Positions 2,226 to 60,290 of a DNA stretch of 64,000 nt are shown here, piece by piece (position 1 is the first letter of the stretch; each line of letters opens with the position of its first letter). Below the pieces are notes generated by a model that worked only from the letters and a program-made list of their open reading frames with translations, searched no databases and was not told the origin of the DNA. This DNA comes from Candidatus Levyibacteriota bacterium (lineage in GTDB: Bacteria; Patescibacteriota; Microgenomatia; Levybacterales; UBA12049), in contig JACPLG010000007.1 in assembly GCA_016186625.1 (NCBI GenBank), forward strand, positions 10,426 to 74,425, read 5' to 3'. A program made the position numbers and the translations under genes.

Positions 2226-2340
2226 CGAAACAACAATGGTCAGAATACTCGGATGATTACTAAGATAGTTCAGAAGACTCAGAATACTCAGACCACCGGA
2301 GCATCAGAGAGTCCGACTAACAGAAAACCAGAAGACCTGT
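2226..2340. repeat. dispersed repeat family A copy (CAGAA/CTCAG word element)
   Basis: The words cagaatactcgg and cagaagactcagaatactcag are shared with the elements at 15236, 24036 and 27341. Confidence 0.5.
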
Positions 2341-2368: not shown

Positions 2369-2713
2369 TTGATCTTGAAGTATATAAAGAATCGCTACGA
2401 CTTCTTAAAAAACTTTATCCTCAAAAAAGTACCCAAATCTGAATATGATTCTGTTATCCAATCTAAGAAATGTGGAAAATCAATTCCTTCGAATATTGCA
2501 GAGGGGTGGGCGAAGAGATCATCTGAAGCTGAGTTTAAAAGATTTTTGAAAATTGCAATTGGCTCAAGCGATGAATTAATCTCACATTTGCGAACAATCG
2601 CCATTGCAGTCCCAAGATTATTAGAAGAGGCAAAAGAGCTCGTTGAAGACTACAAAGTATTATCTAAAAGAATTAATAAACTTCATTCGATCTGGAGATC
2701 TGGCACATTCTGA
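2369..2713 (+). CDS. four-helix bundle protein (23S rRNA intervening-sequence protein family)
   Basis: Motifs SIPSNIAEGWAKRS and IAIGSSDELISHL are characteristic of the family. Confidence 0.75.
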   Translation: MILKYIKNRYDFLKNFILKKVPKSEYDSVIQSKKCGKSIPSNIAEGWAKRSSEAEFKRFLKIAIGSSDELISHLRTIAIAVPRLLEEAKELVEDYKVLSKRINKLHSIWRSGTF

Positions 2714-2760
2714 TTTTCTGACATTCTGGATTTCTGAGTTTTCCGAGTTTTCAGAAATAT
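2700..2760. repeat. dispersed repeat family A half-element (reverse orientation)
   Basis: Its reverse complement matches the second arm of the element at 15325..15400 (cagaaaatcaga...ccagatctccagatc). Confidence 0.5.
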
Positions 2761-3553: not shown

Positions 3554-3578
3554 TTTGCCTTTTGAATTTTGACTTGTA

Positions 3579-7541: not shown

Positions 7542-7658
7542 GGATCAATTATAGTTCATTAATCTTTAATCTTAAATCATTAATCTGAGGAAATCTGTAA
7601 AGTTTTTATAAGGCAAATATCAAGGCAAAATGTTTACTTAGAGATAGAATGCTCGCAT

Positions 7659-11381: not shown

Positions 11382-13034
11382 TTAAATTTTAAAGATTTGT
11401 CTCCAAACAGCTTGTGGACCACCTTTTACTCCAGGCGCGGGAGTCTTCATTGAATAAGCAGCAGTACCTCTGGCAAAAGCTCCTATGGTGGCACCTGCTT
11501 CACCTGCGGGTTGGAAGACAGGGCCGTAGTTAACTCCTGTTGCTTTTATAGCGCTTCTTGTTACATTAAGAACGTTTGGAGTGAGGAACAGAAATCCTAA
11601 GGCAATAATTCCTGAGAAAATCGGTGATCCTGCGCCTGCGCCACCTCCCGCCAGAGGAGGAATAAATATCGGGCCAGTTGCACCAAAGAGGCTTGGGTCT
11701 GCCGCAATCTGGCTAAATACTTTACCAAGAATAATCATTGAAAGCGCAGTTGGGAATACAGCCAAGTTGGCAATCATGTCCTTAAACCACGCGCCTACTC
11801 CAACAGTTGATCCTGGGAAGAGGCCAATAAGAAACCAGAAAGGCGCAAAAACTATGTCAATAAGAATAGTTATATAAGCAACAATTAGTATTATCCAAAG
11901 CCTTATTGCCGTATAAATTAAGGCAATAAATATTATTAGTGCGGATAAGACTCCCACAATTAGCCCTACTACTGCTGCAAACATATTGCCAATAATGTCA
12001 AAAAAGCCTGGTTCAAATTTGAAATCGGATGGTGGTACTCCCCCGGGAGAACCATTCAGCGCTACCTCAACCAGTCTTCTAATTGTATCCGAGCCTTGGG
12101 CAGCAAGTTCAGGAAATCCTCCCCCACCTATAACCTCTAAATCCGGATCTCCTGGCCAGAGCCTGTTTATTAAATCAAAAGGAGTGGGGGAAGTTGCAAT
12201 TTCATTAAAGCCGATTTGCTGCGCGGTGGCAGAAGGTTGCCTGATAAGATCAAAAAGGATACCCCCAACTAAATAAATTGCAACGTACATAACATCAACC
12301 AGAAATCCGGCAATTGCAAAGGAAAATGTGACCAGAAGTATTCCTACAATTATTCTGGGAATCTGGTTCTCAATGGTCATAACAGTTCTGGGATCTATAT
12401 GGACCCTAAGCATTATGGCAAGGCCAATTAGGACAAAAATTAGAACAAATAGAAGATAGGCAATATTTCTCATGGCAACCCAGATTGAAATAAGGGGCCT
12501 GATGCCACAAAACCCTACTCCTTGCGAAGCGCCTGCGCATAGATTGGTCTGGGCATATGCTTTTTTGGTTATGCCAAAATTGCCAGCCAAATAGTTTATA
12601 TACTCTCCGGAGCTTACTGGAGGGGTGAAAGTGTAGGCAATAAATGTTCCTATTATCCCAACCGCTCCATTGCCGTTTTCCACAAACCCGATTTTTCCTG
12701 TCACAGGATCAATACCCAAACACTCCTGGCCACTTCTTACTAAATCCATACCTGAGAGCTGGCAGACCATGGCAGCCATCACCTCAATTACTACAGACTG
12801 AACATAACTGTGCTGGTCTTTGGGCACATCCGGATTTAAGTTGGGAGCATAAGCGGCTGATTGCTGATTGCTGATTGCTGATTGCTGATTTCCAACTACT
12901 ACAGTAGCGTTGGTTTGAGCATAGGCTGTTCCAATATAAAATATAAAATAGAAAAAAGAAAATAGACCGAAGAATAAAACTAAACGCTTAACGCTTAACG
13001 CTAGACGCTTCGCTTGGGCAGCAATTCTCATCAA
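11382..13034 (-). CDS. polytopic membrane protein, VirB6/TrbL-like
   Basis: Signal peptide, 6 or more TM helices, Gly-rich loops. An in-frame ctgattg x5 repeat at 12855..12895 and a gcttaacgc repeat lie in the N-terminal region. Confidence 0.45.
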   Translation of the reverse strand: MMRIAAQAKRLALSVKRLVLFFGLFSFFYFIFYIGTAYAQTNATVVVGNQQSAISNQQSAAYAPNLNPDVPKDQHSYVQSVVIEVMAAMVCQLSGMDLVRSGQECLGIDPVTGKIGFVENGNGAVGIIGTFIAYTFTPPVSSGEYINYLAGNFGITKKAYAQTNLCAGASQGVGFCGIRPLISIWVAMRNIAYLLFVLIFVLIGLAIMLRVHIDPRTVMTIENQIPRIIVGILLVTFSFAIAGFLVDVMYVAIYLVGGILFDLIRQPSATAQQIGFNEIATSPTPFDLINRLWPGDPDLEVIGGGGFPELAAQGSDTIRRLVEVALNGSPGGVPPSDFKFEPGFFDIIGNMFAAVVGLIVGVLSALIIFIALIYTAIRLWIILIVAYITILIDIVFAPFWFLIGLFPGSTVGVGAWFKDMIANLAVFPTALSMIILGKVFSQIAADPSLFGATGPIFIPPLAGGGAGAGSPIFSGIIALGFLFLTPNVLNVTRSAIKATGVNYGPVFQPAGEAGATIGAFARGTAAYSMKTPAPGVKGGPQAVWRQIFKI

Positions 13035-14674: not shown

Positions 14675-14873
14675 ATACCCTTTCTTTAGTCTAAGCTTAC
14701 TTAGCTTAGTTTGTCAAAGTATACAGTGAGGCAAGCCCGACAGCTTGATAACAACTTTACAGAAAGATTATAAGATTAGACGGTAGATGATAGATAATTG
14801 AAGATAGAATTTTTGAAGATAGAAGATTGAGGATGGATCGATTTTCTATTTTCCATATCCAAATTCCTACTTT

Positions 14874-15227
14874 CTATGTTCTATTTTCTATCGTCGAACT
14901 CTCCGTCAGGGTTTTGGCAGTTGAAATTGCTGAGTCAATATTGCCCTGTCTTATAAAATCCCGCATTTGATTTAAAACCTGGTCTCTTTTTTCATCAGTT
15001 GCTTTTTCAAGCTCATCAAGATAAACTTTCTCAGCCTCAGGATATTTTTGTCCCAAGTTTTTAAGCTTTTGCAAAAGATCAGCCTGGTCTTTTATAGGAA
15101 GAACGGCAAGGAAATCACGGGCCAGTTGCTGAGCCGCCCCAGCCTCAATTTTATTACTCTTAAGATGCTCGATAATAAGTTGGAGCAACTCTTTTTTTAC
15201 TTCTTCAACCTCTTGCGTAATATCCAC
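14874..15227 (-). CDS. hypothetical helical protein
   Basis: 117-aa ORF with no recognised motif. Confidence 0.45.
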   Translation of the reverse strand: MDITQEVEEVKKELLQLIIEHLKSNKIEAGAAQQLARDFLAVLPIKDQADLLQKLKNLGQKYPEAEKVYLDELEKATDEKRDQVLNQMRDFIRQGNIDSAISTAKTLTESSTIENRT

Positions 15228-15235
15228 ACATTTAT

Positions 15236-15410
15236 TTTACCAGAAAACTCGGAAAACTCAGAGTTCCGGAAATTCAGGTAACCAGAAAATCTGATAAGCT
15301 AAAAGTGTGGTGCGAGATGTTACAGATCTGGAGATCTGGTACATTCTGATTCTCTGATTTTCTGACAATCTGAGTAATCACCTGAGTATTCTGAACTATT
15401 TGTCTTGACG
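15236..15410. repeat. dispersed palindromic element, family A (full hairpin-type copy)
   Basis: The first 24 nt cagaaaactcggaaaactcagagt are identical to 27372..27395. The second arm is the inverted word set. Confidence 0.6.
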
Positions 15411-19088: not shown

Positions 19089-19169
19089 GATATATTAGGG
19101 TGTAGGGCGTAGGTGGTAGGGTGTAGTTCGAATCAAACTAAACGCTATACGCTAAACCCTATTCGCTAA

Positions 19170-19958
19170 ATGAAATTGCTTGATCTTATTTTCCCAAAAT
19201 ATTGTGTTAATTGCAAAAAATTCGGCGATTATCTTTGTCCTGATTGTTTTTCCCGTCTCTCATTTGATACAAAAAATATCTGTTTGGCATGCGGAAATCC
19301 TTCTTTTGACGGTTTGACTCATCCAAGGTGCAGTAGCCGTTATCGAATAGATGGCTCATTCACAGGAGTTGTTTTTAATCCTATCTCAAAAAAGCTAATT
19401 TATCAATTCAAATACAAGCCTTATTTATCCGGTTTGTCATCGTTTTTAACAGATTTACTTTATGAATCTCTTATTCAAAATGAAGAGTTTAATAAGGTTC
19501 TTCGTTTGCCATTGATGCTTGTTCCAATTCCTCTTAGCCCGAAACGATTTAAAAAAAGAGGATATAACCAGGCTGAAATTCTGGCAAAAAGTCTTTCCAA
19601 AAAGTTTGGTTCCCCGGTTGTTAATTACCTTGTTCGAACGAGAGAAACTCGTTCGCAAGTTGGTTTAACCAAAGAAAAGAGGAAAGAAAATGTTTCCGGC
19701 GCATTTGCATTGAGGAAAAATGTTCGGGGTCCTGCCACTCGTTTCCCTCCCGCCAGTGCTCGTTCACGAAACACTGACATCCGCGCTGTCTGGAGCCCTT
19801 CCACTCCTGTCACCCCTCACATTTTAATTGAAAATAAAAATATAATTCTAATTGACGATGTTTTGACAACTGGTTCTACTTTCTCCGAAGCTGGAAATGT
19901 TTTGAAAAGAGCTGGAGCTGCAAAAGTCTGGGCAATTGCCTTTGCAAGGGAACAATGA
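19170..19958 (+). CDS. comFC: ComF family protein (double zinc ribbon plus phosphoribosyltransferase domain)
   Basis: CVNCKKFGDYLCPDCF and CLACG ribbons. C-terminal IILIDDVLTTGSTF is the PRTase motif. A GC-rich in-frame insertion at 19727..19815 matches the family A repeat terminus. Confidence 0.75.
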   Translation: MKLLDLIFPKYCVNCKKFGDYLCPDCFSRLSFDTKNICLACGNPSFDGLTHPRCSSRYRIDGSFTGVVFNPISKKLIYQFKYKPYLSGLSSFLTDLLYESLIQNEEFNKVLRLPLMLVPIPLSPKRFKKRGYNQAEILAKSLSKKFGSPVVNYLVRTRETRSQVGLTKEKRKENVSGAFALRKNVRGPATRFPPASARSRNTDIRAVWSPSTPVTPHILIENKNIILIDDVLTTGSTFSEAGNVLKRAGAAKVWAIAFAREQ

Positions 19959-20037: not shown

Positions 20038-20436
20038 GGGGATGCATCGCATCGACAAGATTAGTTCTTTAAAAACTGCAAGCCGTCAACGATTAAAAAG
20101 ACGTTAACTTTGATCAAAAATTAAATGCTATAAAAGCGTTTAAAGCTAATGTTTTGGCTTTTGCCAGAACACTTAGCGCTCCATTTGCAGCACCGGCATT
20201 AGCCTTTGCTTAAATAGAGCTGTTCATTATATCTTCCTCAGGTGAGACATTTTGAGCATAAACTTAGCCTGAGAAACTGTAAGGAAGGCGGTTAGGTCCT
20301 TATTGTATTTATAACCTCGGCTCTTTTTATGGATGTTGATTTTCAAAGAAAAGAGTGATCAAAAAAATAATCAACTATGCTTGTAGAAGTTTTTAAACGC
20401 AATTCTTGCACTCGGGATCACTTCCCGACATCTCCA
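20038..20436 (+). ncRNA. ssrA: putative tmRNA (SsrA)
   Basis: 5' end ggggatgcatcgcatcgac resembles the tmRNA consensus GGGG.UG...UUCGAC. The 3' T-arm-like tcggg-atcactt-cccga is followed by catctcc pairing with the 5' end. Internal open frame ends ...AAPALAFA-taa at 20211. Adjacent to smpB. Confidence 0.55.
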
Positions 20437-20440
20437 CAAA

Positions 20441-20917: not shown

Positions 20918-21029
20918 TTGTTACATTGTTCGATTGCTGCTCGGCTTGCCTCGCTTATTGTTGAACAGTTAGCAATTAAACAATAGAGCAATGGAGCAAT
21001 TGCTTTCCAATCATAGCCCAAAAGAGGGT

Positions 21030-24002: not shown

Positions 24003-24035
24003 TGTAAAAATAGTAAATAGTAAATAGTAAATATT

Positions 24036-24200
24036 TTTCAGAATACTCAGAAGTTTACTCAGATCGTCAGAAAAAATCAGACAATCAGATAATCAGAAAT
24101 CCGGAACTCTGAAACACTGATTCTCTGAAAATATCTGGTACTCTGAGTTTTCCGAGTTTTCTGGGCAGGGAGAACGAGCGACAGGACCCCGAGCGGAGAT
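24036..24200. repeat. family A palindromic element, inverted copy of 27341..27575
   Basis: Reverse complement is near-identical (about 170 bp) to the 27341 copy, apart from a 62-bp GC-rich insertion in the latter. Confidence 0.7.
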
Positions 24201-24240
24201 CGATGATTTAACATGCGACAATTATAGCATTCTCCTGCAA

Positions 24241-25923
24241 TTATTTTCTCTCAATATTATAAAGGGGACCGACTATTTGAATATTGGCTGGAGCGCGCAA
24301 ATTAAAGTATGTTTTAAAATCAGAGCCGGAAAAAGTTTGAGAACCTGAGTTGCCAACTATTGTTATTGAACTTACTCTTCCACCACCAAAATCGGCAGAA
24401 ACCGTTACGCTTGAAACGCTGGTAAAAGGCGTCCCGCCACGACTTCCTAGCTCTTGTCTTACTCTTGCGCCGTCCCAAGTGTCAGTCCCTGCCGGGTTGG
24501 GCTTATCAATTTGATATAAATGTTCTCTTGTCCCGCCATCTCTGGCAACTAGCATTAAAACATTTACAATGTCGGCTACCTCTTCAGATTTTAGCCAAGC
24601 AGTTTTATTGTACTCCGTCCTAGATCCCCAATCGCAGTAAAACCATGGAGAATCTTTATCATAAGCATTTGACGAAAGATCGGAAAATCCTGAGGCTGAT
24701 CCACTGGTAGTATCTGTTGCGTGTTTTGTCCAAGAAGTATCATTCCAGCCAATTTCTCCTGTTGTAAATATATATCCGCCATGTGTTGAAGAGTACCAAG
24801 ACTTTATCGGGTTTCCACCCTGAACCATTACCCATCCCCGAGTTTCATTAACAGCTTGTTCCCAGCGCCCGCCCTTGGGATCTGGTTTAAATACCTGACA
24901 ACTTTGAGTTGTACAAATTGACCCCGCTCCGTTATTTGTATAAGCAAGCGCATAAGACCGCGCCGCAACGGCTTGCGCTTTTAAAGCCTCCATCTCCCAA
25001 GACTCTGGCATTTCATAAATTCTTTTAACATAGTCCTCTATGTTATACGCTCCGTATCCATCTACATTGATATTGATATCGGCTGAATAGTCTTTCTTAA
25101 GTTCAAAGTTTTGATAATAAGCATTTAGTATTGTTTCTGCATTTTGCCCTGCTTTTGCTCTTCCATTTGCGCCATATTGATTTAAGCCTGTCCTATTGGG
25201 AACTCCATAAGTAAAGAAAGCGAATGCATTCGAAAAACCAGGATCTTTGTCTCTATCATCAACACAGCCTGCAAGGATTGTTCCCGCGGATCTTGGAATA
25301 TTAAGGCTTGCAAGTCGCTGCGATAATATCTGTTGCTGGCGGGCTGAAAGGGCTGCAATTTGACCGGAGAGAACTGCCTGGTATTTTTTTGCATCAGTTA
25401 CAATCTTATCAAGTCTGACTTTTATTTCTGCTAATCTTTTCTGCTCATCTTCAAGACTTGCCTTTTTTTCCTCGAGACTATTTATAAGAAGGGCGATGTT
25501 GGTGATTATTAGTTTATCTTTGTCTGCCGTAGCTCTCTGATAGGCAAGCACTTGGGTTAATTCGCTAGCTGAGCTTGCCGAGAGAAGAAGAAGCAGTGGG
25601 GAATTATAGTAGCTTTTGATGTAATAATTCCTTATTGCCAGGTTTAATTTTTCTGTTTGTTTTTCTAAATCTTTATAACCTTTTTCAATGTCATTCCTCT
25701 TTCTAATAAGATCATTTTCAATAAAGGCAACGCGATTCTTAATTACATTCAATTGCTGCTCAACTGGAGCGGTTGCGGCTTTTGACTGATTAAGAGCAGC
25801 TGTTAGCTCACTTATTTGTTTATTAATGTCATCAAGCTCATCTCCCCAAACCTTAGTAATGCCAATAAAAAGAGACAGCGCAAAAAGAAAAGAGAATAAA
25901 AAAAGAATGTGTTTGGGCATCAA
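24241..25923 (-). CDS. SpoIID/LytB domain protein with N-terminal coiled coil
   Basis: EALKAQAVAARSYA...CTTQSCQVF and WYSSTHGGY motifs, plus a signal peptide. Confidence 0.7.
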   Translation of the reverse strand: MMPKHILFLFSFLFALSLFIGITKVWGDELDDINKQISELTAALNQSKAATAPVEQQLNVIKNRVAFIENDLIRKRNDIEKGYKDLEKQTEKLNLAIRNYYIKSYYNSPLLLLLSASSASELTQVLAYQRATADKDKLIITNIALLINSLEEKKASLEDEQKRLAEIKVRLDKIVTDAKKYQAVLSGQIAALSARQQQILSQRLASLNIPRSAGTILAGCVDDRDKDPGFSNAFAFFTYGVPNRTGLNQYGANGRAKAGQNAETILNAYYQNFELKKDYSADININVDGYGAYNIEDYVKRIYEMPESWEMEALKAQAVAARSYALAYTNNGAGSICTTQSCQVFKPDPKGGRWEQAVNETRGWVMVQGGNPIKSWYSSTHGGYIFTTGEIGWNDTSWTKHATDTTSGSASGFSDLSSNAYDKDSPWFYCDWGSRTEYNKTAWLKSEEVADIVNVLMLVARDGGTREHLYQIDKPNPAGTDTWDGARVRQELGSRGGTPFTSVSSVTVSADFGGGRVSSITIVGNSGSQTFSGSDFKTYFNLRAPANIQIVGPLYNIERK

Positions 25924-25985
25924 CGGTATTATACCAAATCAAGTGTTGATGATTGAAATTTATTGTGATATAGTAAGCCAAAATT

Positions 25986-26546
25986 ATGGAAGAGATCTCT
26001 TATTCCGGAGGGAGAGTTCCTATAAGAAGAAGAGTCCCAAAAAGACTTGCTCTTTTTGGCATATTTTTTCTTATCATACTTCTACTTTTGGGAAGTGTTG
26101 CATATTTTGCTACCAGAGGAAGCTCCAACGATCAAGTCACAGAGTCGATTACTCTGCCAGAAGAGTCCGAACCAGAAATAACCGAAGAAGAGCCGACTCC
26201 GGAGGAATCTCCCGAGCCAACTGAAGAAGAAGAGCCAACTCCTACTCCCACAAGAGCTTCAACGCAAACCTCGTCTGGCACAGTTTCGGTTCAGAACGGA
26301 AGCGGGGAAACAGGAGTTGCCGCAGCTGCTGCAGCGGTTCTTCGTGACGGCGGATTTTCAATTGCATCAACTGGAAACGCGGATAATTTTGACTACACTG
26401 ATGTGACAATCCAAGTCAAAAATTCAAAAAAGAGCATTTTATCTTTACTTCAAGATGCCCTTTCTTCGGATTACACAATTGGTAAAACCTCAACAGACCT
26501 TCCGGAAAGCTCAGGCTATGACGCCCTGGTTATTATTGGAAAATAG
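25986..26546 (+). CDS. LytR_C domain-containing membrane-anchored protein
   Basis: N-terminal TM, Pro/Glu-rich linker, C-terminal VSVQNGSGETGVAAAAAAVLRDGGF...DVTIQV. Confidence 0.6.
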   Translation: MEEISYSGGRVPIRRRVPKRLALFGIFFLIILLLLGSVAYFATRGSSNDQVTESITLPEESEPEITEEEPTPEESPEPTEEEEPTPTPTRASTQTSSGTVSVQNGSGETGVAAAAAAVLRDGGFSIASTGNADNFDYTDVTIQVKNSKKSILSLLQDALSSDYTIGKTSTDLPESSGYDALVIIGK

Positions 26547-26725
26547 GACTTTTTAAAGCTTTGATGTCGCTTGCAAAATTTTCTTGGAGACGCTCCGCTC
26601 GCGTCGGCTAGGTCCTTTAATCCCGACGCTGCTTCGCTTGCCCTCCTGCGAAAATTTCGCAAGCTCCATACGCCTTTTCCCTTTGGTACTTGTGGTACTT
26701 TTGATACCCGTGATACCCTTACAAT

Positions 26726-27340
26726 ATGATTATTCCCACAATTCTAGAAAAGACCTGGGAGGAAATAGAGGAAAAATTTGAAATATATAAAAATTTTGCA
26801 AAAGTAGTCCACGTAGATTTTATTGATGGAAAGTTTACCAACAATTTAACTTTCCTTGATGTCGAGCCTTTCTCAAAATATTCCAAGTATTTTGATCTTG
26901 AAGCGCATTTAATGGTCGAAGAACCTATAAGCTATTTGGATGAGTTGTCATCGGCAGGATTTAAAACTTTTCTTGGACAAATTGAAAAAATGATTGATCA
27001 AGTGGAGTTTGTTGCCAAGGGAGAAATGCTAGGCGCAGTAGGACTTGCACTTGATATTGAAACGCCCAGCTCTCAAATAAAAGTCTCATATGAGGACTTG
27101 GACAGAATTCTTTTAATGGGAGTGCATTTGGGAGCTTCGGGTAGACCATTTGATGGAAGAGTAATTCCTAAGATGAAAGATATTTCACAATCTGGTTTTG
27201 TAAACATTCAGGTTGACGGAGGCGTTGATGATAAAACTTTGCCAATGCTCCGACAAAACGGAGCAAGGTTTTTCTGCGTCAATAGCTTTCTTTTTAAAGG
27301 CGATCCAAAAAAACAGTTTGAAATTCTTGAATCACTTTGA
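26726..27340 (+). CDS. rpe: ribulose-phosphate 3-epimerase
   Basis: VHVDFIDGKFTNNLTF, HLMVEEP and C-terminal VDGGV motifs. Confidence 0.8.
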   Translation: MIIPTILEKTWEEIEEKFEIYKNFAKVVHVDFIDGKFTNNLTFLDVEPFSKYSKYFDLEAHLMVEEPISYLDELSSAGFKTFLGQIEKMIDQVEFVAKGEMLGAVGLALDIETPSSQIKVSYEDLDRILLMGVHLGASGRPFDGRVIPKMKDISQSGFVNIQVDGGVDDKTLPMLRQNGARFFCVNSFLFKGDPKKQFEILESL

Positions 27341-27575
27341 GCTAGGGGTCCTGTCGCTCGTTTCCCTGCTCAGAAAACTCGGAAAACTCAGAGTACCAGA
27401 TATTTTCAGAGAATCAGTGTTTCAGAGTTCCGGATTTCCCGCCTGCCATGGCCTGCCAGCCCGCTTGCCAAGCGAAGCGGCCAGGGGCACTGGCGGACAG
27501 GCTGATTATCCGATTGTCTGATTTTTTCTGACGATCTGAGTAAACATCTGAGTATTCCGAAAAATATTTTCTATG
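27341..27575. repeat. family A palindromic element carrying a nested GC-rich hairpin insertion
   Basis: ggggtcctgtcgctcgtttccctgctcagaaaactcggaaaactcagagt... The nested 62-bp insert (tttcccgcctgccatggc...) resembles the hairpin at 4705..4750. Confidence 0.7.
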
Positions 27576-27611
27576 TATATTTGCTATTTAAAATTTGATA
27601 TTTAATATGAT

Positions 27612-29894
27612 TTAGGGGTTTGGTTTTTGCTCCGAAAGACTAATTGGTCTACATAGTACCCTATTTTCTGTGCCTTTTATAAAGTATTCGTTTTTCCCTC
27701 CACACGGCTTGACCACAATATTTTTGGGTGGAGATAAGAGTTCGTCCTTAGGATCACTACTACTTAACAAATTATTCATTATCTTATTCCAAATAGGAGC
27801 AGCCCCTGTAATTCCTGAAGCAAGTCTTGGATTCATAGGGGAGTTATTGTTATTTCCCACCCAAACAGCAGTTAAAATATTGGGAGTATAGCCTATTGTC
27901 CAATTGTCTCTTTTATTATCCGTTGTCCCGGTTTTAACAGAAACAGTATGTCTTGGTATATTAAGTGGAGAATTATAACCAAACTCCATTGCCCGAGAAT
28001 TATTATCAGATAGAATATTTGAAATTATAAATGCAACCTCTTCGGGAACTGCCCTTTTCTTTTTAATTTCTTTCTTCTCTTCGAAAACCTGTCCTTGATA
28101 GTTGGTGACTTTAAGAATTGGGTTAAGCTCTATTTTTTCCCCTTGGTTGGCAAGAGTTCCATAAACAACTGCCATGTCGGTCATTTTTACCTCAGCAGCA
28201 CCAAGAGTTATTGCAAGTCCGTAATTTTGCGGATCTTTCCACGAAGTAATTCCCATTTTTTTGCCCAAATCAACCATTGTCTGAATTCCAATTTTATTAA
28301 GAATTTTTACTGCAGGGATATTGATTGAATTTCCAAGAGCATTCCTAAGAGTTACAGTTCCGTGGAATCTGCCGTCATAATTAACTGGTGAGTAGACAAG
28401 CGCTCCGGCGGGAGCATAGGAAACAGGGGTGTCTTGGACTGTTGTTGCAGCAGTGAAACCATTAAGAAGCGCTGCTGAATAAGTGACAACTTTTATTGCT
28501 GATCCGGGCTGGCGAAGTGCTGTTGTCACATTGTAATTCCCACTATCCTCCGCAAAATAATCTTTCCCTCCTACCATAGCCAGGATGTCTCCATTTTTAG
28601 GGTTTGTGATCAGTGCTGCGGCATTAGTCAGGTTTAGATAAGCTGAGTTTTCAACTTCCGCAGTTACAATCTTCTGGGCCATATCCTGAGTTTTTAAATC
28701 AAGACTTGTAATAACAGAGAGCCCACCCCGCTCAACAATAGGAAGACCGTAGCGTTCAATCAAAAGCTGCCTAACATACATTACAAAGTGAGGAGCCTTT
28801 ATGCTATTTTTATTTTCTCTAAATTCTAATTTTTCATTCTCCGCTTTTTTTGCTTGTTCCGAAGTTATGAAATTTAGCGAAACCATTTGGGCAAGAACCT
28901 CTTTTTGTCGGGCATTCCACAAGTTAGGATTTTGACCATACGGAGAGTATGTTGAAGGAGCCTGGGGAAGTCCTGCCAAAAATGCGCTTTCCGAAAGTGA
29001 AAGCTGTGTTACATCTTTTCCAAAATAAGTTTGAGCAGCGGCTTGGGCTCCCCAGGCAGTGCCTCCATAAGGAACTTGGTTAAAATACATTTCCAAAATT
29101 TGGTCTTTGGTATAAATCCGCTGTGCCCATACTGAAAGGATGACTTCTTTTATCTTTCTTTCAAGTGTTCGCTCAGGGGTTAAGAGCCTTGATTTTACCA
29201 GTTGTTGGGTAATAGTTGAGCCTCCCTGAAGAGGACGGCCCGTTAGATCAACTATTGCAGCCCTAAGTATTGCTAGGACGTCAAAGCCTGGAGTTTTGTA
29301 GAAATTCTTGTCCTCAATTGCTATTGTTGCATTTTTAAGATCCTGGGGAATTTTAGATAAGGGGACATTTGTTCTATCCTGATTGGCGTAAATTTGATAG
29401 AGAAGAGTTTTGTTTCTGTCATAAATTTTTGTTGTTTGAGAAATTTCTTGGTGAGCAAGAGTAGAAGGGTTTGGCAAGCTTCTAATAAATATTATGGAAA
29501 CTATGGGCATAAAAATAAAGAAAAAAGAAAAAATACTCCCAATTAAGATATATTTGAGTCTGGTTTGAAATGGAAGTCTAAGAGGAAGTCTTGGACGGCC
29601 TCTTTTTTTATGCTTTAAATGAAATTTTGGGAGATGCGGCCTTGAAAGTTTGATCTGCTGCATTTTTACCACGGGAAGTTTGAAAACAGGAAGTTTAAAC
29701 TGTGGCAGGCGGGGAAGTTTGACTATTGGTTTTTTAGTTTCTTCCTCAGTGCTAAAGATTATCTGTTCAACAATTTTTTTTCGCCGCAAGTGTATGAGGA
29801 TTTTCCACAGGAGAGATAAAAAAAGAAGAGTTACATCGCCAATAAAAATTAGTATTTTGGCAGCAAGAATGATAAGGTCCTCAACCAGTTTCAT
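27612..29894 (-). CDS. class A penicillin-binding protein (PBP1A-type transglycosylase/transpeptidase)
   Basis: GT51 motifs EDKNFYKTPGFD and GGSTITQQLVK. Transpeptidase SxxK/SxN motifs downstream. Confidence 0.9.
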   Translation of the reverse strand: MKLVEDLIILAAKILIFIGDVTLLFLSLLWKILIHLRRKKIVEQIIFSTEEETKKPIVKLPRLPQFKLPVFKLPVVKMQQIKLSRPHLPKFHLKHKKRGRPRLPLRLPFQTRLKYILIGSIFSFFFIFMPIVSIIFIRSLPNPSTLAHQEISQTTKIYDRNKTLLYQIYANQDRTNVPLSKIPQDLKNATIAIEDKNFYKTPGFDVLAILRAAIVDLTGRPLQGGSTITQQLVKSRLLTPERTLERKIKEVILSVWAQRIYTKDQILEMYFNQVPYGGTAWGAQAAAQTYFGKDVTQLSLSESAFLAGLPQAPSTYSPYGQNPNLWNARQKEVLAQMVSLNFITSEQAKKAENEKLEFRENKNSIKAPHFVMYVRQLLIERYGLPIVERGGLSVITSLDLKTQDMAQKIVTAEVENSAYLNLTNAAALITNPKNGDILAMVGGKDYFAEDSGNYNVTTALRQPGSAIKVVTYSAALLNGFTAATTVQDTPVSYAPAGALVYSPVNYDGRFHGTVTLRNALGNSINIPAVKILNKIGIQTMVDLGKKMGITSWKDPQNYGLAITLGAAEVKMTDMAVVYGTLANQGEKIELNPILKVTNYQGQVFEEKKEIKKKRAVPEEVAFIISNILSDNNSRAMEFGYNSPLNIPRHTVSVKTGTTDNKRDNWTIGYTPNILTAVWVGNNNNSPMNPRLASGITGAAPIWNKIMNNLLSSSDPKDELLSPPKNIVVKPCGGKNEYFIKGTENRVLCRPISLSEQKPNP

Positions 29895-38500: not shown

Positions 38501-38583
38501 ATCGGATTTAAGTTCGAGCACAGATCAGTAGAGCACTTTAACTTGCCCTATTTGCTATTTGATATTTACTTTTTAATATTTCT

Positions 38584-39033
38584 ATGAAGTGTCCATATTG
38601 CGGATCAAAAGATACTGAAGTAGTTGAAACCAGAGACTCGGAAGATTTGGAAACCATTAGGAGGAGACGAAACTGCGTTAAATGTGAGAAAAGATTTACT
38701 ACATATGAGCGAGTCGAGAATGTTAATCTGGTTGTTATTAAAAAAGACGGAAGGAGAGAGCAATTTAATAGAGACAAGCTCAAAAATGGAATTATTAGAT
38801 CCTGCGAAAAGACCAAAGTTTCGGTTGAAGACATAGAGAAAATTGTTACAGAAGTTGAAAGAGAACTGCGAGGTGCAGACTCGGTTGAGGTAGAAAGTAA
38901 AAAGATCGGGCAGATGGTTGCGGGCAAATTAAAAAAGTTAGACAAGATAGCATACATCCGTTTTTCAAGTGTATTTAGAAGATTTGTAGATATTGAAGAT
39001 TTTGAGAAAGAAGTAAAGAAACTTATTAACTAA
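38584..39033 (+). CDS. nrdR: transcriptional repressor NrdR
   Basis: MKCPYCGSKDTEVVETR zinc ribbon plus ATP-cone. Confidence 0.9.
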   Translation: MKCPYCGSKDTEVVETRDSEDLETIRRRRNCVKCEKRFTTYERVENVNLVVIKKDGRREQFNRDKLKNGIIRSCEKTKVSVEDIEKIVTEVERELRGADSVEVESKKIGQMVAGKLKKLDKIAYIRFSSVFRRFVDIEDFEKEVKKLIN

Positions 39034-39127
39034 GTCAAAAAGCAAAATGCAAAAGTCAAAATTTAAAGTAAAAAGTAAAAAAGTTTAATAATTTTGAATT
39101 GTACTTTTGAGTTTTGATTTTTAACTT

Positions 39128-41530
39128 TTGAATTTTATGAAATTAGACGGTGTGAGACAAAAAGTATTTTTAGACAGATACTCTTTAAAAGATAAAGAGG
39201 GAAAACCTCTTGAAAAAACTCCGGATGAGATGTGGCGGCGCGTTGCCAAGGGAATTGCAGGACAGGAAAAGAAAAGTCTTCAAAAAATCTGGGAGAAGAA
39301 ATTTTATGATGCTATATCTGGGTTTAAGTTTCTTCCGGGCGGACGAATTCTTGCAGGAGCAGGGACTGGATTTGATGTAACTTATTTTAATTGTTTTGTA
39401 ATTCCTTCCCCAAAAGACTCCCGTGACGGAATTTTAGATAACCTCAAAATCATGATTGAAATTATGGCACGCGGCGGAGGAGTTGGAATTAATTTATCTT
39501 CTCTTCGTCCAAAAGGAGCAAGAGTTAAAAAAGTAAACGGATTTTCCTCAGGCCCTATGAACTGGGCTGAGCTTTATTCTTTGGCAACTAAAGATATTAT
39601 TCAGCAAGGAGGAAGCAGGCGCGGCGCTTTAATGCTTATGCTTCATGATTGGCATCCGGATATTGAGGAGTTCATTACTGTTAAAGAAGATCTAAGAAGA
39701 ATTAACGGCGCAAATCTATCCGTCTGTGTTTCCGATGATTTCATGGAGGCAGTAAAAAATGATTCGGATTGGAAACTGGAATTCCCGGATTTGGATGACC
39801 CCAAGTATGACAAAAAATGGGATGGAGACTTAAAAGCCTGGAAGGCACGTGGCGGGCGAGTTGTAGTCAAGAAGACAGTTAAGGCAAAATACCTCTGGGA
39901 TCTAATTTGCAGCGCTGCATGGAGATCTGCTGAGCCAGGACTTCACTTTTTGGACAGAAGCAACAAGCGTTCGAATACGTATTATTTTGAGCAGTTAATT
40001 GCAACCAACCCTTGCGGAGAACAGCCACTTGGGGAGTGGGCGGTTTGTAATCTTGGCGCAATTAATCTCTCAGCCTATGTACATGGAGGAGAGTTTGATT
40101 ATAAAAACTTTGGTAAAGATGTAAGAACTGCCATCCGATTTTTAGATAATGTTATTGATGATACATATTATTTTTATCCTGAAAATGAAAAAATTGCTAA
40201 GGATATCCGCCGAACAGGCCTTGGTATCTTAGGCCTTGCTGACGCTTTAATTAAAATGAAGCTAAGGTACGGCGCTGCGGAAACAGAAGAGACATTGCGA
40301 AAAATCTTTGAGACTTTGCGAGATAATGCGTATGACGCATCAGCTGACATTGCCAAAGAAAAAGGAGCTTTTCCTAAATTTAAGGCGGCAAAATATCTTA
40401 AAGGTTATCATATACAAGCCTTGCCCCAGAAAATTAAAGACAAGATTGCCAGAAATGGAATAAGAAACGCAGTACTTCTTACAATTGCGCCAACTGGAAC
40501 AACCTCTTTAATCTCAGGAGTTTCTTCTGGAGTTGAGCCTGTTTATGAGTTCGAGTTCATAAGACGCGACCGCCTTGGAGAACACAAAATGTACCATCCT
40601 TTGTTTGAAGCATGGAAAAAAAATCACCCAAATGACGTAAAACCGGATTACTTTGTCTCAGCAAATGATCTGACACCCGAAGAGCACGTTATGGTGCAAT
40701 CTATTGCTCAGGAATATATTGATTCTTCAATTTCAAAAACCGTTAACGCGCCCAATGCCCACACCCCGGAGGACGTCAAAAATCTCTATATGCTGGCTTA
40801 TGAGCACGGTCTTAAAGGCATTACATATATGAGAGAGGGAAGCAGGGAAGGAGTTTTGTCTAGGGTGAATGATAAAAAAGACCAGACTTTGGGCAGGCAG
40901 GAGTCTGCGCCGGCCACTCTTCCCAAAGAATATGTTAGAGCGCCTCGTCCAATGATGGTTGAAGGAGTTACCTACAAAACTCAAACTCCAGTTGGAGATA
41001 CCTTTATCACTCTAAATCATGATCAAGGGGGAGAACCTTTTGAAGTATTTATAACAATTGGAAAAACAGGATCAGATCTTTCTGCAATGGCTGACGCTCT
41101 GGGCAGAATGATTTCCCTAAACCTTCGTCTCGCAGGCAACCTGCCGCCGCGCGAGAGGATTAGACAGGTTATATCACAGCTCTCAGGAATCGGGGGCGCT
41201 CGAAGCGTAGGCTTCGGAGAAAATAGAGTGCGCTCCCTTCCTGATGCTGTTGCCAAGATTTTGGCAAAGCAATATGCATTTAGAGTAAATGGTGCTGTTG
41301 AAGACAAACTTGCGCCAGGTGTCCTAACACCGGTTGCCACACCGGCGGCAGATTTACCTTCGGAAAAGGAAGAAATAACAGTTTTGCAACAACTCCCTTT
41401 ACAAGAAGGGATTGTAGGTAGTAAAGCAGACACTCATTTATTTGATATTTGTCCTGAATGCGGAGCAGGAGCATTTGCATATGAAGAAGGTTGCAGGAAA
41501 TGCTATTCCTGCGGCCACTCTGAATGCTAG
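39128..41530 (+). CDS. nrdJ: ribonucleoside-diphosphate/triphosphate reductase, class II (adenosylcobalamin-dependent)
   Basis: 800 aa. Motifs PGGRILAGAG, NPCGEQPL and C-terminal CxxC...CxxC. Confidence 0.9.
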   Translation: MNFMKLDGVRQKVFLDRYSLKDKEGKPLEKTPDEMWRRVAKGIAGQEKKSLQKIWEKKFYDAISGFKFLPGGRILAGAGTGFDVTYFNCFVIPSPKDSRDGILDNLKIMIEIMARGGGVGINLSSLRPKGARVKKVNGFSSGPMNWAELYSLATKDIIQQGGSRRGALMLMLHDWHPDIEEFITVKEDLRRINGANLSVCVSDDFMEAVKNDSDWKLEFPDLDDPKYDKKWDGDLKAWKARGGRVVVKKTVKAKYLWDLICSAAWRSAEPGLHFLDRSNKRSNTYYFEQLIATNPCGEQPLGEWAVCNLGAINLSAYVHGGEFDYKNFGKDVRTAIRFLDNVIDDTYYFYPENEKIAKDIRRTGLGILGLADALIKMKLRYGAAETEETLRKIFETLRDNAYDASADIAKEKGAFPKFKAAKYLKGYHIQALPQKIKDKIARNGIRNAVLLTIAPTGTTSLISGVSSGVEPVYEFEFIRRDRLGEHKMYHPLFEAWKKNHPNDVKPDYFVSANDLTPEEHVMVQSIAQEYIDSSISKTVNAPNAHTPEDVKNLYMLAYEHGLKGITYMREGSREGVLSRVNDKKDQTLGRQESAPATLPKEYVRAPRPMMVEGVTYKTQTPVGDTFITLNHDQGGEPFEVFITIGKTGSDLSAMADALGRMISLNLRLAGNLPPRERIRQVISQLSGIGGARSVGFGENRVRSLPDAVAKILAKQYAFRVNGAVEDKLAPGVLTPVATPAADLPSEKEEITVLQQLPLQEGIVGSKADTHLFDICPECGAGAFAYEEGCRKCYSCGHSEC

Positions 41531-58695: not shown

Positions 58696-59925
58696 TTGAC
58701 GTATATGAAAGTAGCTATTGTTCATGATTACATAAAGGAATATGGCGGAGCAGAAAGGGTTTTGGAAGCACTATCTGAGATTTATCCCAAAGCTCCGATT
58801 TATACTGCATTTGTTGATAAAAATTCCAGTGCTTACGAGAGGTTTAAGAATAAAAAAATTATTTCTTCGTGGTTTGGCTATCTGCCATTTGCATCAAAAC
58901 TTGCAAGCCCGCTGCGGTTTTTAACTCCTTTTATTTGGGGCTCGTTTGATTTCTCAAAATATGACCTGGTGATTTCCAGTGCATCGTGGTACATCACTAA
59001 AGGTTTTGGTTCAGGCAAGCAATCGAGCAATGAAACAATCGAACAATCTGGCCGAAGGCCTATCGAGATTTGTTATTGTCATACGCCTCCCAGATGGCTT
59101 TATGGCTATACCACTTCTGTAAACTTTCAAAAATACGCTCTTGTTCGTCTCTATGCGCATGTTGTAGGACATTTCCTTCGTCTATACGATTTTAAACAAG
59201 CACAAAAGGTAGATTATTTTATAGCGAATTCGCAAGAAGTGGCAGCAAGAATTAAAAAATTTTACAGAAGAGACTCAACTGTGATTTACCCGCCGGTAAG
59301 TTTGCAAAATCCGAAATCCGAAATCCGAAATCCGAAATCCGGTAAGGATTATTATTTTATGGTTTCGCGAATTGTTGGAGCAAAAGGTCTGGAGTTGGCA
59401 GTGGAAGCTTCAATTAAGGCAGGGTTTAAGCTTAAAATCGCTGGAGCAAAAGCAGGATATTATTCGGATCGTGGACTTCGAGAAAACGCCCAAGAAAACG
59501 TCGAGTTTCTGGGACAAGTTTCAGATGAGGAGTTAGCTGAGCTTTACAGGGGAGCAAAAGGATTTTTGGCTTTAGCTCGCGATGAGGATTTTGGAATAAC
59601 ACCGGTTGAGGCAATGATGGCAGGAACACCTGTTATTGCTTACAACGGAGGAGGGTATAAGGAGAGCGTTATTGATCCTTCGGCAGCTTCCTCCAAAGGC
59701 GGACAGGCAGGACAAGCGGCAACAGGAGTTTTATTTGATGATTATTCTGTTGATGGTCTTATTTCGGCGATTAAAAAATTTGAAAAGACCAAGTTTGACC
59801 CAGACGTTTTAATAAACCACGCACAAAAGTTTAGCAAAGAAAGATTTGAGAAAGAAATCAGGGAGTTTGTTGAAAAGCATGCAATCACAGAAGCACAGAG
59901 GAGTCCGCAGAAAACTCAGAAATGA
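58696..59925 (+). CDS. glycosyltransferase family 4 protein with in-frame microsatellite insertion
   Basis: GT4 N-terminus MKVAIVHDY...GGAERV and C-terminal EDFGITPVEAMMAGTPVIA. A (aaatccg)n repeat at 59298..59340 encodes NPKSEIRNPKSG. Confidence 0.8.
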   Translation: MTYMKVAIVHDYIKEYGGAERVLEALSEIYPKAPIYTAFVDKNSSAYERFKNKKIISSWFGYLPFASKLASPLRFLTPFIWGSFDFSKYDLVISSASWYITKGFGSGKQSSNETIEQSGRRPIEICYCHTPPRWLYGYTTSVNFQKYALVRLYAHVVGHFLRLYDFKQAQKVDYFIANSQEVAARIKKFYRRDSTVIYPPVSLQNPKSEIRNPKSGKDYYFMVSRIVGAKGLELAVEASIKAGFKLKIAGAKAGYYSDRGLRENAQENVEFLGQVSDEELAELYRGAKGFLALARDEDFGITPVEAMMAGTPVIAYNGGGYKESVIDPSAASSKGGQAGQAATGVLFDDYSVDGLISAIKKFEKTKFDPDVLINHAQKFSKERFEKEIREFVEKHAITEAQRSPQKTQK

Positions 59926-60290
59926 AGTATCTCTACAGCGATTTGACTCAAAAGATTATTGGCGCAGCAGTTAATGTTCATAAAGAACTAGGTCCAGGTC
60001 ACCCGGAAAAAATTTATCAAAGAGCCCTGGCAGAAGAGTTTACGAAACAAGAAATACAATATATCAGAGAAAAGAGATTTGATATATTTTACAATGGCAA
60101 AAGTGTGGGATACGAAACTATGGATTTTATCGCATTTGATAAGATTGCTATAGAATTAAAAGCTGCAAGAGAGATCATGGATTTGCATGCCAAACAATTA
60201 GTAGGTTATCTTAAGGGAGCAAATATAAAACTTGGTTTAATATTGAATTTTGGGAAAAATCAATTAGAAATAAAAAGAGTTATTATATAA
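59922..60290 (+). CDS. GxxExxY protein
   Basis: IIGAAVNVHKELGPGHPEKIYQRAL matches the family signature. Confidence 0.7.
   Translation: MKYLYSDLTQKIIGAAVNVHKELGPGHPEKIYQRALAEEFTKQEIQYIREKRFDIFYNGKSVGYETMDFIAFDKIAIELKAAREIMDLHAKQLVGYLKGANIKLGLILNFGKNQLEIKRVII

Follow-up and report, generated by a model that had tools for sequence, protein, structure and literature searches.

The 64-kb window (i.e. the whole stretch of DNA that was analysed, part of a Levybacteria MAG) contains, in the spacers of a bPH/SpoIID/LytR_C/rpe/PBP/PBP gene cluster, two palindromic repeats in opposite orientation that bracket the SpoIID, LytR_C and rpe genes. This arrangement had been noticed in an earlier, sequence-only reading of the DNA, and the domain scan bears it out, with SpoIID, LytR_C and Ribul_P_3_epim being the domains found between the copies at 24036 and 27341. 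The first palindrome (site 1, 24037-24164, minus strand) consists of arms only and is located in the SpoIID/bPH spacer, with the stop codon of SpoIID on one side and the start of the bPH-like gene on the other. It is accompanied by a GC-rich leader (24165-24197, minus strand; reverse complement GCTCGGGGTCCTGTCGCTCGTTCTCCCTGC), which according to the alignments was duplicated along with the palindrome and whose motif matches a second GC-rich repeat (19724-19818, and L025 1928-2012) in its 5' part. On its other side lies a trailer of AAATAGT heptamers (24003-24036, minus strand; TRF 24008-24033, period 7, 3.7 copies, 100% matches), immediately upstream of the bPH-like start codon and partly homologous to the trailer of site 2. 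The second palindrome (site 2, 27370-27561, plus strand), likewise arms only, follows a GC-rich leader that starts right behind the rpe stop codon (27341-27369, plus strand), has 64 nt of GC-rich sequence inserted at its apex (27439-27502, plus strand) and is succeeded by a trailer of TATTTGCTATTT / ATATTTA words (27562-27611, plus strand; TRF 27577-27608), which forms a direct repeat (D16) with 38549-38579.

Both palindromes belong to a family (Family A) that is present in the window as four elements, the other two being located at 2240-2757 and 15240-15396 (both plus strand). All four lie between protein-coding genes and none within a gene; three have no ORF and measure 128-192 nt, and the fourth is a long form of 518 nt. 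The sequence-only reading had counted five internally palindromic copies. The repeats are real, but the stretches at 2226..2340 and 2700..2760 turn out to be the two arms of one element, single arms around a 23S_rRNA_IVP gene. The long identical stretches that it reported are there: the 24-mer CAGAAAACTCGGAAAACTCAGAGT has exact copies at 15241(+), 24140(-) and 27371(+) and one copy with 3 mismatches at 2731(-), against a chance expectation of 0.00. Outside the four Family A places, YCRGA/TCYGR words cluster at only two points: 46794-46809, with a small group of forward words, and 59302-59347, where the cluster is one of the AAATCCG family.

That sites 1 and 2 are reverse complements of each other was also correct. 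The arms are 99% (24096-24171 vs 27363-27438) and 93% complementary (24021-24096 vs 27502-27577), and over leader, palindrome and the start of the trailer, with one insert excluded, the sites are identical at 160/165 positions (97%). The extent given for the pair needs correction, as the homology passes the palindrome by ~30 nt on either side.

The long form and its gene

The element at 2240-2757 consists of a left word array (2240-2339), a pseudogene (2353-2713) with a frameshift near 2418 resulting from a 5-nt deletion, and a right word array (2689-2757). The pseudogene belongs to the four-helix-bundle family 23S_rRNA_IVP (PF05635, Pfam E = 4e-15; also TIGR02436), and arms and gene are colinear with elements from Curtiss-, Chisholm- and Gottesmanbacteria and one further MAG (L007, L014, L051, L067). 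In the long forms of 5 genomes and ~30 metagenome loci, a four-helix-bundle protein is the sole ORF. The copy at 15240-15396 has both arms and retains ORF sequence from either end, ~9 codons at the start and ~25 nt at the close (remnants at about 15305-15349), and differs from the full-length elements by one ~345-nt gap, located at a GATCT microhomology. Judging from this alignment, it is an internal-deletion derivative of the ORF-carrying form.

A second ORF-carrying element, with words of a different family (AAAAGTC / TTTTGAA), is located at 3106-3575 (minus strand). Its four-helix-bundle gene (~3179-3553) is apparently intact (Pfam E = 2e-24; PDB 2RLD E = 3e-16) and is enclosed by inverted arms (3133-3177 / 3525-3569; repeat families D1/D2/I1/I4/I6), with arm-only kin at 39031-39137 and 62385-62503. 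Since the Family A gene of the window is frameshifted, it cannot have been the helper for the recent duplication that produced site 1, unless an intact copy exists outside the window.

An alignment of 5 close four-helix-bundle sequences served as the query for a search of metagenomes. At the first loci, 8/8 four-helix-bundle genes were flanked by inverted word arrays, and by inspection the flanks at 61 distinct loci are inverted arrays of 7-9-nt words, the sequence of which differs (by eye) with gene lineage. The flank-flank duplex energy is -72.5 kcal/mol, compared to -44.9 kcal/mol for shifted controls (Mann-Whitney p = 2e-30, n = 72); the 72 contain several identical loci, and the 61 distinct ones average -72.8 kcal/mol. 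Some loci lie within 16S or 23S rRNA genes, as do the homologous ORF-plus-array units of L099, L132 and L141. Gene and arms may occur together through shared descent instead of functional dependence. A literature search returned no work linking four-helix-bundle/IVS ORFs to word arrays, MITE-like derivatives or insertions in CPR coding sequences.

Folding, ends and the nested insert

The RNA folding that the sequence-only reading had proposed as a check yields long bulged hairpins for all three short copies, with z = -5.0 vs shuffles for site 1 (-58.7 kcal/mol), -3.2 for site 2 and -3.7 for the copy at 15240-15396. The ends of Family A, which can be written as CAGAAAACTCGGAAAACTCAGA, are conserved across Microgenomates. 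The conserved end CAGAARACTCRGAAWACTCAGA and its inverse form terminal inverted repeats in 34 minimal-copy rows across genomes, which include overlapping calls of one element and represent ~31 distinct copies. Pairing of the ends is imperfect, with recurrent mismatches. Covariation between the arms was considered and rejected, as the variable end positions are anticorrelated (453 matches vs 476 +/- 6 expected), which points to two end types without compensatory change.

The nested GC-rich piece of site 2 had been described as a 62-bp hairpin related to one at 4705-4750. It is present as the 64-nt insertion, but by itself it folds no better than shuffles (z = -0.2), and the relationship comes down to a single 16-nt identity (4709-4724; E = 0.011 in a small database) that is partly host-element sequence, with no further match. 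A family of GC-rich nested hairpins was therefore discarded.

Family A in other genomes

An end-pattern search of GTDB genomes gave 84 stretches. In the Microgenomates copies the inverse end follows 60-180 nt from the matching end, and the number of words varies between copies (runs in L019, L066 and L079). In 18/34 minimal-copy rows, or about 15/31 distinct copies, the element lies in-frame within a long ORF, the ORFs including those for RadA-like, DNA ligase, UvrA, transketolase, PBP1, TrxB-like, Wzy_C, TopA (two insertions) and 5'-3' exonuclease proteins. Filled and empty orthologues could be compared for MurD, with 33 additional codons in L015, and for the 5'-3' exonuclease, with a filled/empty contrast at L019. 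Phages were considered as a vector and dropped: IMG/VR gave 3 end-pattern matches, none of them a Family A palindrome.

The inverted pair in related genomes

Four related Levybacteria (L165, L166, L167 and L168) have the bPH/SpoIID/LytR_C/rpe/PBP/PBP order with the same orientations. The empty sites that the sequence-only reading had suggested looking for exist for both copies: site 1 is vacant in 4/4 relatives, and site 2 in 3/4 (L165, L167, L168), which have a 4-nt overlap of the rpe and PBP genes instead. In L166, site 2 is occupied by an orthologous copy (6613-6790, after rpe) with the same leader and trailer (the latter also common to L008b), without the 64-nt insert and with one 9-nt word fewer. 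Because none of the four relatives has an element at site 1 whereas site 2 is filled in L166, site 1 is a young duplicate of the older site-2 copy. The donor copy was retained, which implies a movement other than cut-and-paste. The duplicate includes ~30 nt of flank beyond the palindrome on both sides, which, going by the alignment, would fit recombination as well as transposition. Target-site duplications, also among the proposed checks, were not visible in the filled/empty comparisons at MurD, the exonuclease, site 1 and site 2, at a resolution limited by the divergence between the genomes; TAGGGGT recurs at 27343 and 27613, but as an interrupted repeat.

The site-2 copies of the window and L166 are 88% identical, compared to 56-75% nucleotide identity for the neighbouring genes and 38-55% at their third codon positions. 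This better conservation could point to a host function instead of selfishness, or to repeated overwriting. Between donor and copy in the window there is only a handful of differences (5 counted), which by eye are not A-specific, and DGR-like adenine mutagenesis was accordingly set aside.

The relatives have also kept a CACAGAG palindrome that separates the GxxExxY gene from fpg. The GxxExxY (PDDEXK_3) nuclease was considered as mobile cargo, but its conserved place upstream of fpg in the relatives marks it as a stable resident.

Discussion

The reading that we favour, with a probability of roughly 0.7, is that Family A is an IVS-type element (IVS, rRNA intervening sequence), selfish and palindromic, that resides in the genome of a Candidatus Levybacteria (Microgenomates/CPR). 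Its full-length form carries a gene for a ~120-aa four-helix-bundle protein (PF05635/TIGR02436, S23p/Avd-like) between two imperfect inverted arrays, whose 7-9-nt CAGA-type words are predicted to pair into a long bulged stem, and loss of the gene by internal deletion leaves arm-only miniature copies. The window contains the whole series, i.e. a pseudogenised full-length copy, a deletion derivative with ORF stubs and two minimal hairpins. The site-2 copy was probably gained in a common ancestor of the source genome and its closest sampled relative (L166), and later duplicated, in inverted orientation and with ~30 nt of flank per side, into the SpoIID/bPH spacer, after which the site-2 copy would have taken up the 64-nt insertion at its apex; this insertion is missing from both the site-1 copy and the L166 orthologue. 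Spread would be replicative and dependent on factors supplied in trans, for which the four-helix-bundle protein from intact full-length copies is the sole element-encoded candidate; hairpin-driven recombination or template-switching by host enzymes may provide an alternative route. As the analogy to rRNA IVSs suggests, RNase III would be expected to cut transcripts of the stem, for which a sense-strand folding bias of ORF-carrying copies gives some support, and copies within genes are presumably translated as hydrophilic loops.

Part of this also holds for a classical MITE, i.e. a non-autonomous IS derivative moved by cut-and-paste through a transposase encoded elsewhere in the genome. The ends conserved across genomes resemble terminal inverted repeats, there is insertion polymorphism as well as a long-form/short-form relationship, and inspection covered 64 kb of the source genome (plus a handful of relatives). 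The sequence-only reading had likewise proposed non-autonomous elements, mobilised in trans, in DNA lacking a transposase. Indeed, no transposase domain was found among the window ORFs scanned, nor a RAYT (Y1) gene in the window, and the short copies derive from an ORF-carrying form; what does not stand is a transposase-encoding IS parent, as every long form found encodes the four-helix-bundle gene only. Considering also that no target-site duplication was seen, that the duplicate takes in flanks outside the ends and that the donor was kept, a MITE is unlikely.

Another reading holds the copies to be host cis-acting RNAs, i.e. 3'-UTR or operon-punctuating hairpins for processing, stability or termination, with mobility being incidental or ancient. 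It is improbable, given that the orthologous spacers in most relatives are without the element, with genes abutting or overlapping, and that the same element also occurs within coding sequences. Neither 24003-24240 nor 27341-27611 holds a site resembling an intrinsic terminator (GC-rich stem and U-tract), and an Rfam scan of the window gave no match to the elements and no rRNA, only tmRNA, tRNAs and an AdoCbl-II riboswitch. What speaks for host RNAs is the 88% conservation of the site-2 copy in spite of saturated third codon positions, along with the retention of the GxxExxY/fpg palindrome, the better folding of intergenic than coding windows (z = -0.63 vs +0.10), a sense-strand folding bias in ORF-carrying copies, and the position of the copies directly behind stop codons, co-oriented with a neighbour gene in 4/4 cases (not significant). 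A selfish element could later have been co-opted for such a role, which means that the two readings overlap partly and are not fully exclusive.

Low-complexity DNA, in which short words slip and palindromy arises by chance or local inversion, is very hard to maintain: period 7-9 arrays do occur throughout this genome (97 TRF rows) and word number does vary among copies, but a 165-nt stretch is 97% identical at two distant sites, the same ends recur in several Microgenomates lineages, filled and empty sites in genes are clean and ORF stubs persist at 15240-15396, so that the defined ends and insertion polymorphism exclude the drift that the sequence-only reading had named as its refutation. The inverted pair is an accident of two insertions and not a composite transposon: although two 97%-identical inverted copies 3.2 kb apart could in principle be substrates for homologous inversion, a mobile or invertible cassette (composite transposon or recombinational switch) is extremely improbable, since the four relatives have the same gene order and orientation while lacking one or both copies, the copies differ in age and the segment has neither recombinase nor transposase.

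Going beyond the IVS-type reading, it may be speculated that four-helix-bundle (S23p/Avd-like) genes with inverted heptamer-word arrays form a previously unrecognised, transposase-less class of mobile elements. The small protein would recognise its own lineage-specific array and promote its copying, rRNA IVSs would merely be the best-tolerated landing sites, and in CPR swarms of miniatures would fill spacers and sit in-frame in essential genes. We regard this as doubtful, but if true it would explain both the purpose of the IVS ORF and the way in which IVSs move, a question that has stood for 30 years.

On the favoured reading, an ORF-plus-stem unit of IVS type lives outside rRNA and decays into arm-only miniatures, which are gained at new sites, including the inside of MurD, TopA, UvrA, RadA-like and PBP genes. 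Since sites are found filled as well as empty, helper genes intact as well as dead, and the words fall into several families, the elements offer a comparative system for the question of mobility. In practice, metagenome assemblies are interrupted by repeats of this kind, as in the case of the L166 contig, which stops at the element, and protein families acquire spurious low-complexity inserts from them.

Comparison with known systems

The four-helix-bundle protein belongs to the same superfamily as Avd, with a weak match below cut-off (E = 1e-6) to NCBIfam NF033474, a family named for the accessory protein of diversity-generating retroelements (reverse transcriptase users). Unlike these, Family A shows neither a reverse transcriptase nor a template/variable repeat pair, and the substitutions between donor and copy are not adenine-specific. 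Cyanobacterial STRRs are tandem heptamer words in intergenic DNA, where small dispersed GC-rich repeats are nested in hairpins. By description, Family A shares both the heptamer words and the small GC-rich pieces, although the phylum differs, and we know of no documented link between STRRs and four-helix-bundle genes. REPs measure 20-40 nt, have a conserved tetranucleotide head and are paired with a Y1 (RAYT) transposase gene. As with REP/BIME, Family A consists of extragenic imperfect palindromes in many intergenic spacers, but its units are 128-192 nt, without a tetranucleotide head and without a Y1 gene in the window.

Prokaryotic MITEs (Correia, ERIC, Nezha) are similarly small and multi-copy, with TIR-like ends, insertion polymorphism and an origin by internal deletion; Family A differs in having no transposase-encoding parent, no target-site duplication seen and one copy unit that extends past the ends. 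The Rickettsia palindromic elements (RPE; summarised in PMC10969869) resemble it in being palindromes of ~100-150 nt, a large fraction of which lie in-frame in unrelated housekeeping genes and are read as an extra peptide (for Family A, in the related genomes). The likeness is one of features, the host (CPR) is unrelated, and Family A has an ORF-carrying parent and periodic word-array arms. An RPE-like phenomenon would thereby extend to the Candidate Phyla Radiation, a group with small genomes that are generally regarded as streamlined.

The closest parallel is the rRNA IVS, a selfish element with terminal inverted repeats that are cut by RNase III (PMC4990558), which in Leptospira and Coxiella carries an S23p / 23S_rRNA_IVP ORF (PMC4990558, citing Ralph & McClelland 1993); IVS origin, mobility and the function of the small ORF are still called unclear (PMC4990558). 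Shared with it are the ORF family PF05635/TIGR02436 (a pseudogene in Family A, intact at 3106-3575), the inverted terminal arrays forming a long stem around the ORF, and the selfish character and patchy distribution, with kindred metagenome units inside 16S/23S rRNA genes. In contrast to rRNA IVSs, the window copies lie between protein-coding genes, with further insertions in coding sequences, the arms are built from 7-9-nt words and bulge periodically instead of forming a plain 28-bp stem, and Family A has ORF-less miniatures.

Family A copies in the window

The repeats that defined Family A in the sequence-only reading are real: the 24-mer CAGAAAACTCGGAAAACTCAGAGT is found at four places, three of them exact matches (15241(+), 24140(-) and 27371(+)) and the fourth with 3 mismatches (2731(-)), where none would be expected by chance. 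The conserved end of the family is CAGAAAACTCGGAAAACTCAGA. Clusters of YCRGA/TCYGR words are confined to the same four places, with two exceptions, i.e. a small cluster of forward words (46794-46809) and a member of the AAATCCG family (59302-59347). The copy number has to be corrected, as 2226-2340 and 2700-2760, earlier counted as separate palindromes, are the two arms of one full-length element (2240-2757). This element encloses a 23S_rRNA_IVP/TIGR02436 'four helix bundle protein' gene. Units with colinear arms and gene are found in MAGs of Curtiss-, Chisholm- and Gottesmanbacteria and in one further MAG, and compared to these the window gene has a 5-nt deletion that breaks its frame.

The copy at 15240-15396 has an internal deletion and aligns in four parts with full-length elements: it retains the left arm, the stretch leading up to the start codon and the first ~9 codons (VRDVTDLE), which a single ~345-nt gap, placed at a GATCT microhomology, separates from the final ~25 nt of the ORF and the right arm. 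The window thus holds a decay series: a full-length pseudogenised copy, a derivative that retains ORF stubs, and two hairpins reduced to the arms. Folded as single strands, the elements form long hairpins (4-8-bp helices with small internal loops between them), which are more stable than those of dinucleotide shuffles (z = -5.0, -3.2 and -3.7). No terminator-like tail was found at the elements, and no Rfam family matches them.

The inverted pair

The copies in the SpoIID/bPH spacer (24037-24164(-), site 1) and after rpe (27370-27561(+), site 2) are inverted as described, with two 76-nt blocks complementary at 99% and 93%, and are identical at 160/165 positions (97%; leader, palindrome and start of the trailer, with a 64-nt insert set aside). 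SpoIID-, LytR_C- and ribulose-phosphate-3-epimerase-family genes do lie between them, but the pair does not form one unit with this 3.2-kb segment, as the gene order is the same in four relatives lacking one or both copies. The order and orientation common to these assemblies are bPH-like(-), SpoIID(-), LytR_C(+), rpe(+), PBP(-), PBP(-), and their rpe proteins share 74-78% identity with that of the window, which is itself 100% identical to HYW63_02120 (Candidatus Levybacteria MAG, 94.8-kb contig). The site 1 spacer measures 238 nt in the window (24003-24240), compared to 27-118 nt, without Family A, in the relatives; that of site 2 measures 271 nt (27341-27611), while rpe and PBP overlap by 4 nt in three relatives. 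The closest relative, L166 (contig CAZFNO010000022), carries a Family A copy directly 3' of rpe that shares its GC-rich leader and its TATTTGCTATTT trailer with site 2 and lacks the 64-nt insert. The L166 contig terminates right after this copy, suggesting that the assembly broke at the repeat.

The most economical history is that a common ancestor gained Family A after rpe, that an inverted duplication into the SpoIID/bPH spacer followed in the window lineage, and that a 64-nt GC-rich piece then entered the apex of the older (site 2) copy. At three of the differing positions site 2 has the L166 state and site 1 the derived one (three-way alignment, read by eye), and the duplicated unit reaches ~30 nt past the palindrome on each side. 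The inverted pair is an unremarkable outcome of two insertions.

The orthologous copies after rpe (window 27311-27641, L166 6589-6876) are 88% identical, compared to 56-75% nucleotide identity for the neighbouring genes and 38-55% at third codon positions, i.e. this copy is conserved far better than expected of neutral DNA. The sequence itself, beyond its pairing, may be under constraint; alternatively, similar master copies may have served to renew both, and a third similar copy is present elsewhere in the relative's genome (L008b).

Several other small pieces are found around the pair. The words GGTACTTGTGGTACTTTTGATACCCGTGATACC lie upstream of rpe in the window (26690-26725) and downstream of the post-rpe copy in L166 (6780-6830), and are another word module that changed place between the two. 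The 'leader' of Family A is the 5' part of another GC-rich repeat of ~95 nt (19724-19818, inside a ComF-like gene at 19170..19958, and L025 1928-2012), the first ~28 nt of which match the leader of both copies; this repeat may be another small insertion element within coding sequence. The claimed relationship of the nested piece to the strong stand-alone hairpin at 4700-4765 (-28.3 kcal/mol, z = -4.8) comes down to 16 nt (ATTTCCCGCCTGCCAT) shared with the start of the insert (27434-27449).

Copies beyond the window

A search for the end pattern CAGAARACTCRGAAWACTCAGA in GTDB contigs, with one genome per species, gave 84 stretches. Those from Prevotella and actinobacteria are simple tandem repeats. 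Copies from Microgenomates MAGs have their inverse end 60-180 nt downstream, and the interior is variable but always consists of xCAGA words followed by TCTGx words. Several MAGs titled 'Gammaproteobacteria' behave likewise, one of them syntenic with the window. The CAZFNO01 contigs (L008, L015, L025, L166) carry the title 'uncultured Gammaproteobacteria bacterium' and are syntenic with the window at 68-90% protein identity; the title of this MAG is probably wrong.

Long ORFs read in frame through 18 of the 34 minimal-copy rows (~15 of 31 distinct copies, since some elements are represented by several overlapping rows). According to Pfam, the host ORFs encode RadA-like, ATP-dependent DNA ligase, UvrA, transketolase, class A PBP, thioredoxin-reductase-like, O-antigen ligase, topoisomerase I (two insertions) and 5'-3' exonuclease proteins. 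Two clean filled/empty pairs with the window orthologues are available, i.e. MurD, with 33 extra in-frame codons in L015, and the 5'-3' exonuclease, with an in-frame insert in L019; no duplicated target is visible at either. Insertion polymorphism is seen at MurD, the exonuclease, site 1 and site 2.

Four-helix-bundle genes and their flanks

In the first set of loci, each of the eight four-helix-bundle genes lies between inverted word arrays, and the words vary between genes. Five Family A proteins, used as queries against metagenomes, returned 80 loci (37-87% identity), in which the words follow the protein lineage (CAGAA, GTCAGTAA, TTTCAGTT, CGGATTTC, TAGAAGGTAGAAG, GGAAGCTGGAAG and others). 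The 130-nt flanks pair with an average RNA duplex energy of -72.5 kcal/mol, compared to -44.9 kcal/mol for control positions shifted inside each locus (Mann-Whitney p = 2e-30; 72 loci, several identical), and -72.8 kcal/mol for the 61 distinct loci. Several metagenome loci are bona fide rRNA intervening sequences (IVSs), located within 16S rRNA, 23S rRNA or the spacer between them, in agreement with the 23S_rRNA_IVP ORFs reported in CPR rRNA insertions (PMC11270868). The conserved strings AATACCGWGGGAAGT ... GACCCCGTAGAGACT bracket many units in or next to rRNA genes (L087, L088, L094, L097, L099, L100, L109, L112, L128, L130, L134, L155, L158, L163) and may mark a recurrent structured landing site, e.g. 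an intron or spacer helix; an Rfam search of these loci gave no family at threshold.

Another ORF-carrying element, built with AAAAGTC words, lies at 3106-3575 in the window (arm-only relatives at 39031-39137 and 62385-62503), and a third gene of this kind, a 'four helix bundle suffix domain' (TIGR04258) gene, at 7002-7541(-). TTAATCT heptamers lie upstream of the latter (7559-7586).

In 40 of 61 ORF-carrying units, pairing between the flanks is stronger in the ORF sense strand than in the antisense strand (Wilcoxon p = 8e-4). This bias is the hallmark of G-U pairs and is consistent with a stem acting in the transcript, as when IVSs are excised by RNase III (PMC4990558). Of the minimal copies inside genes, 13/15 fold worse in the mRNA strand than in its complement (p = 0.003), which points to selection against stable folding of coding mRNA, or to amelioration in the direction of purine-rich coding strands. 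Minimal copies do not have mirror-image ends: variable positions of the two ends are anticorrelated (453 matches observed, 476 +/- 6 expected), so that mismatches recur in the stem and the element has a polarity.

Other word families in the window

Word arrays of period 7-9, usually followed by inverse words, occur in about two-thirds of the printed spacers (read by eye), TRF reports 97 rows, and folding is more stable in intergenic 120-nt windows (z = -0.63) than in coding ones (z = +0.10). At least seven other word families are each followed by their inverse (AAATCCG, AGATAGA, TAGGGTG/CTAAACG, ATTGCTC, AAAAGTC, CACAGAG, TAGCGTT), with examples at 5584-5641, 14776-14895, 19096-19170, 20918-21029, 39031-39137, 51648-51776, 58622-58695, 60291-60400 and 62385-62503. 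Such arrays also enter coding sequence, at 51653-51684 (end of MurD), 52132-52237 (TGT gene), 12856-13010 and, in a glycosyltransferase gene (58696..59925), at 59017-59048, 59307-59341 and 59697-59725; compared to its L019 orthologue, this protein has 12-13-aa inserts (GKQSSNETIEQSG, SAASSKGGQAGQAA). A CACAGA-word arm, which doubles as the C-terminal tail of this glycosyltransferase, lies directly upstream of a GxxExxY/PDDEXK_3 nuclease-superfamily gene (59922..60290; region 59880-60400), and a complete CACAGAG palindrome lies downstream. As this gene and palindrome occupy the same place upstream of fpg in five related contigs, they are stable residents.

The window further contains a tmRNA next to smpB (20038-20439), an AdoCbl-II riboswitch just above threshold (41608-41677, upstream of DUF6580 and cobalamin adenosyltransferase genes), a small stand-alone GIY-YIG gene (49609-49887), and three T4SS-pilin genes with a TrwB-like coupling protein (112-675, 2796-3140, 3579-4487, 44887-47211).

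Mechanism and classification

Family A has been gained at formerly empty sites with retention of the donor copy, and has an ORF-carrying parent, conserved ends, a hairpin structure and tolerance within genes. With a probability of about 0.7, it is best described as an IVS-type selfish element with miniature derivatives, the pair resulting from two separate insertions. Its spread would be replicative, with factors supplied in trans. Hairpin-promoted recombination or template switching is an equally live route, since the young duplicate carries flanks. The four-helix-bundle protein would be the only element-encoded candidate mobility factor, a role already proposed for the ORFs of IVSs (Ralph & McClelland 1993, as quoted in PMC4990558), and it belongs to the superfamily of the DGR accessory protein Avd (weak match) and of PDB 2RLD; that this small protein is the specific factor nevertheless seems doubtful. 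The MITE reading fits the behaviour but fails on a transposase parent, as none is found among the window ORFs scanned, and apparently on target-site duplications, as none is visible at the filled/empty comparisons.

Because the literature searched yielded no description of word-array arms around four-helix-bundle genes, of miniature derivatives of such units or of palindromic insertions in CPR coding sequences, Family A is regarded as a novel form of known elements. The inserts in relatives' genes match the in-frame gene inserts of Rickettsia palindromic elements (RPEs; PMC10969869), and the elements in general behave as MITEs and RPEs do, while the long form is homologous to the S23p-type IVS but differs from it in location.
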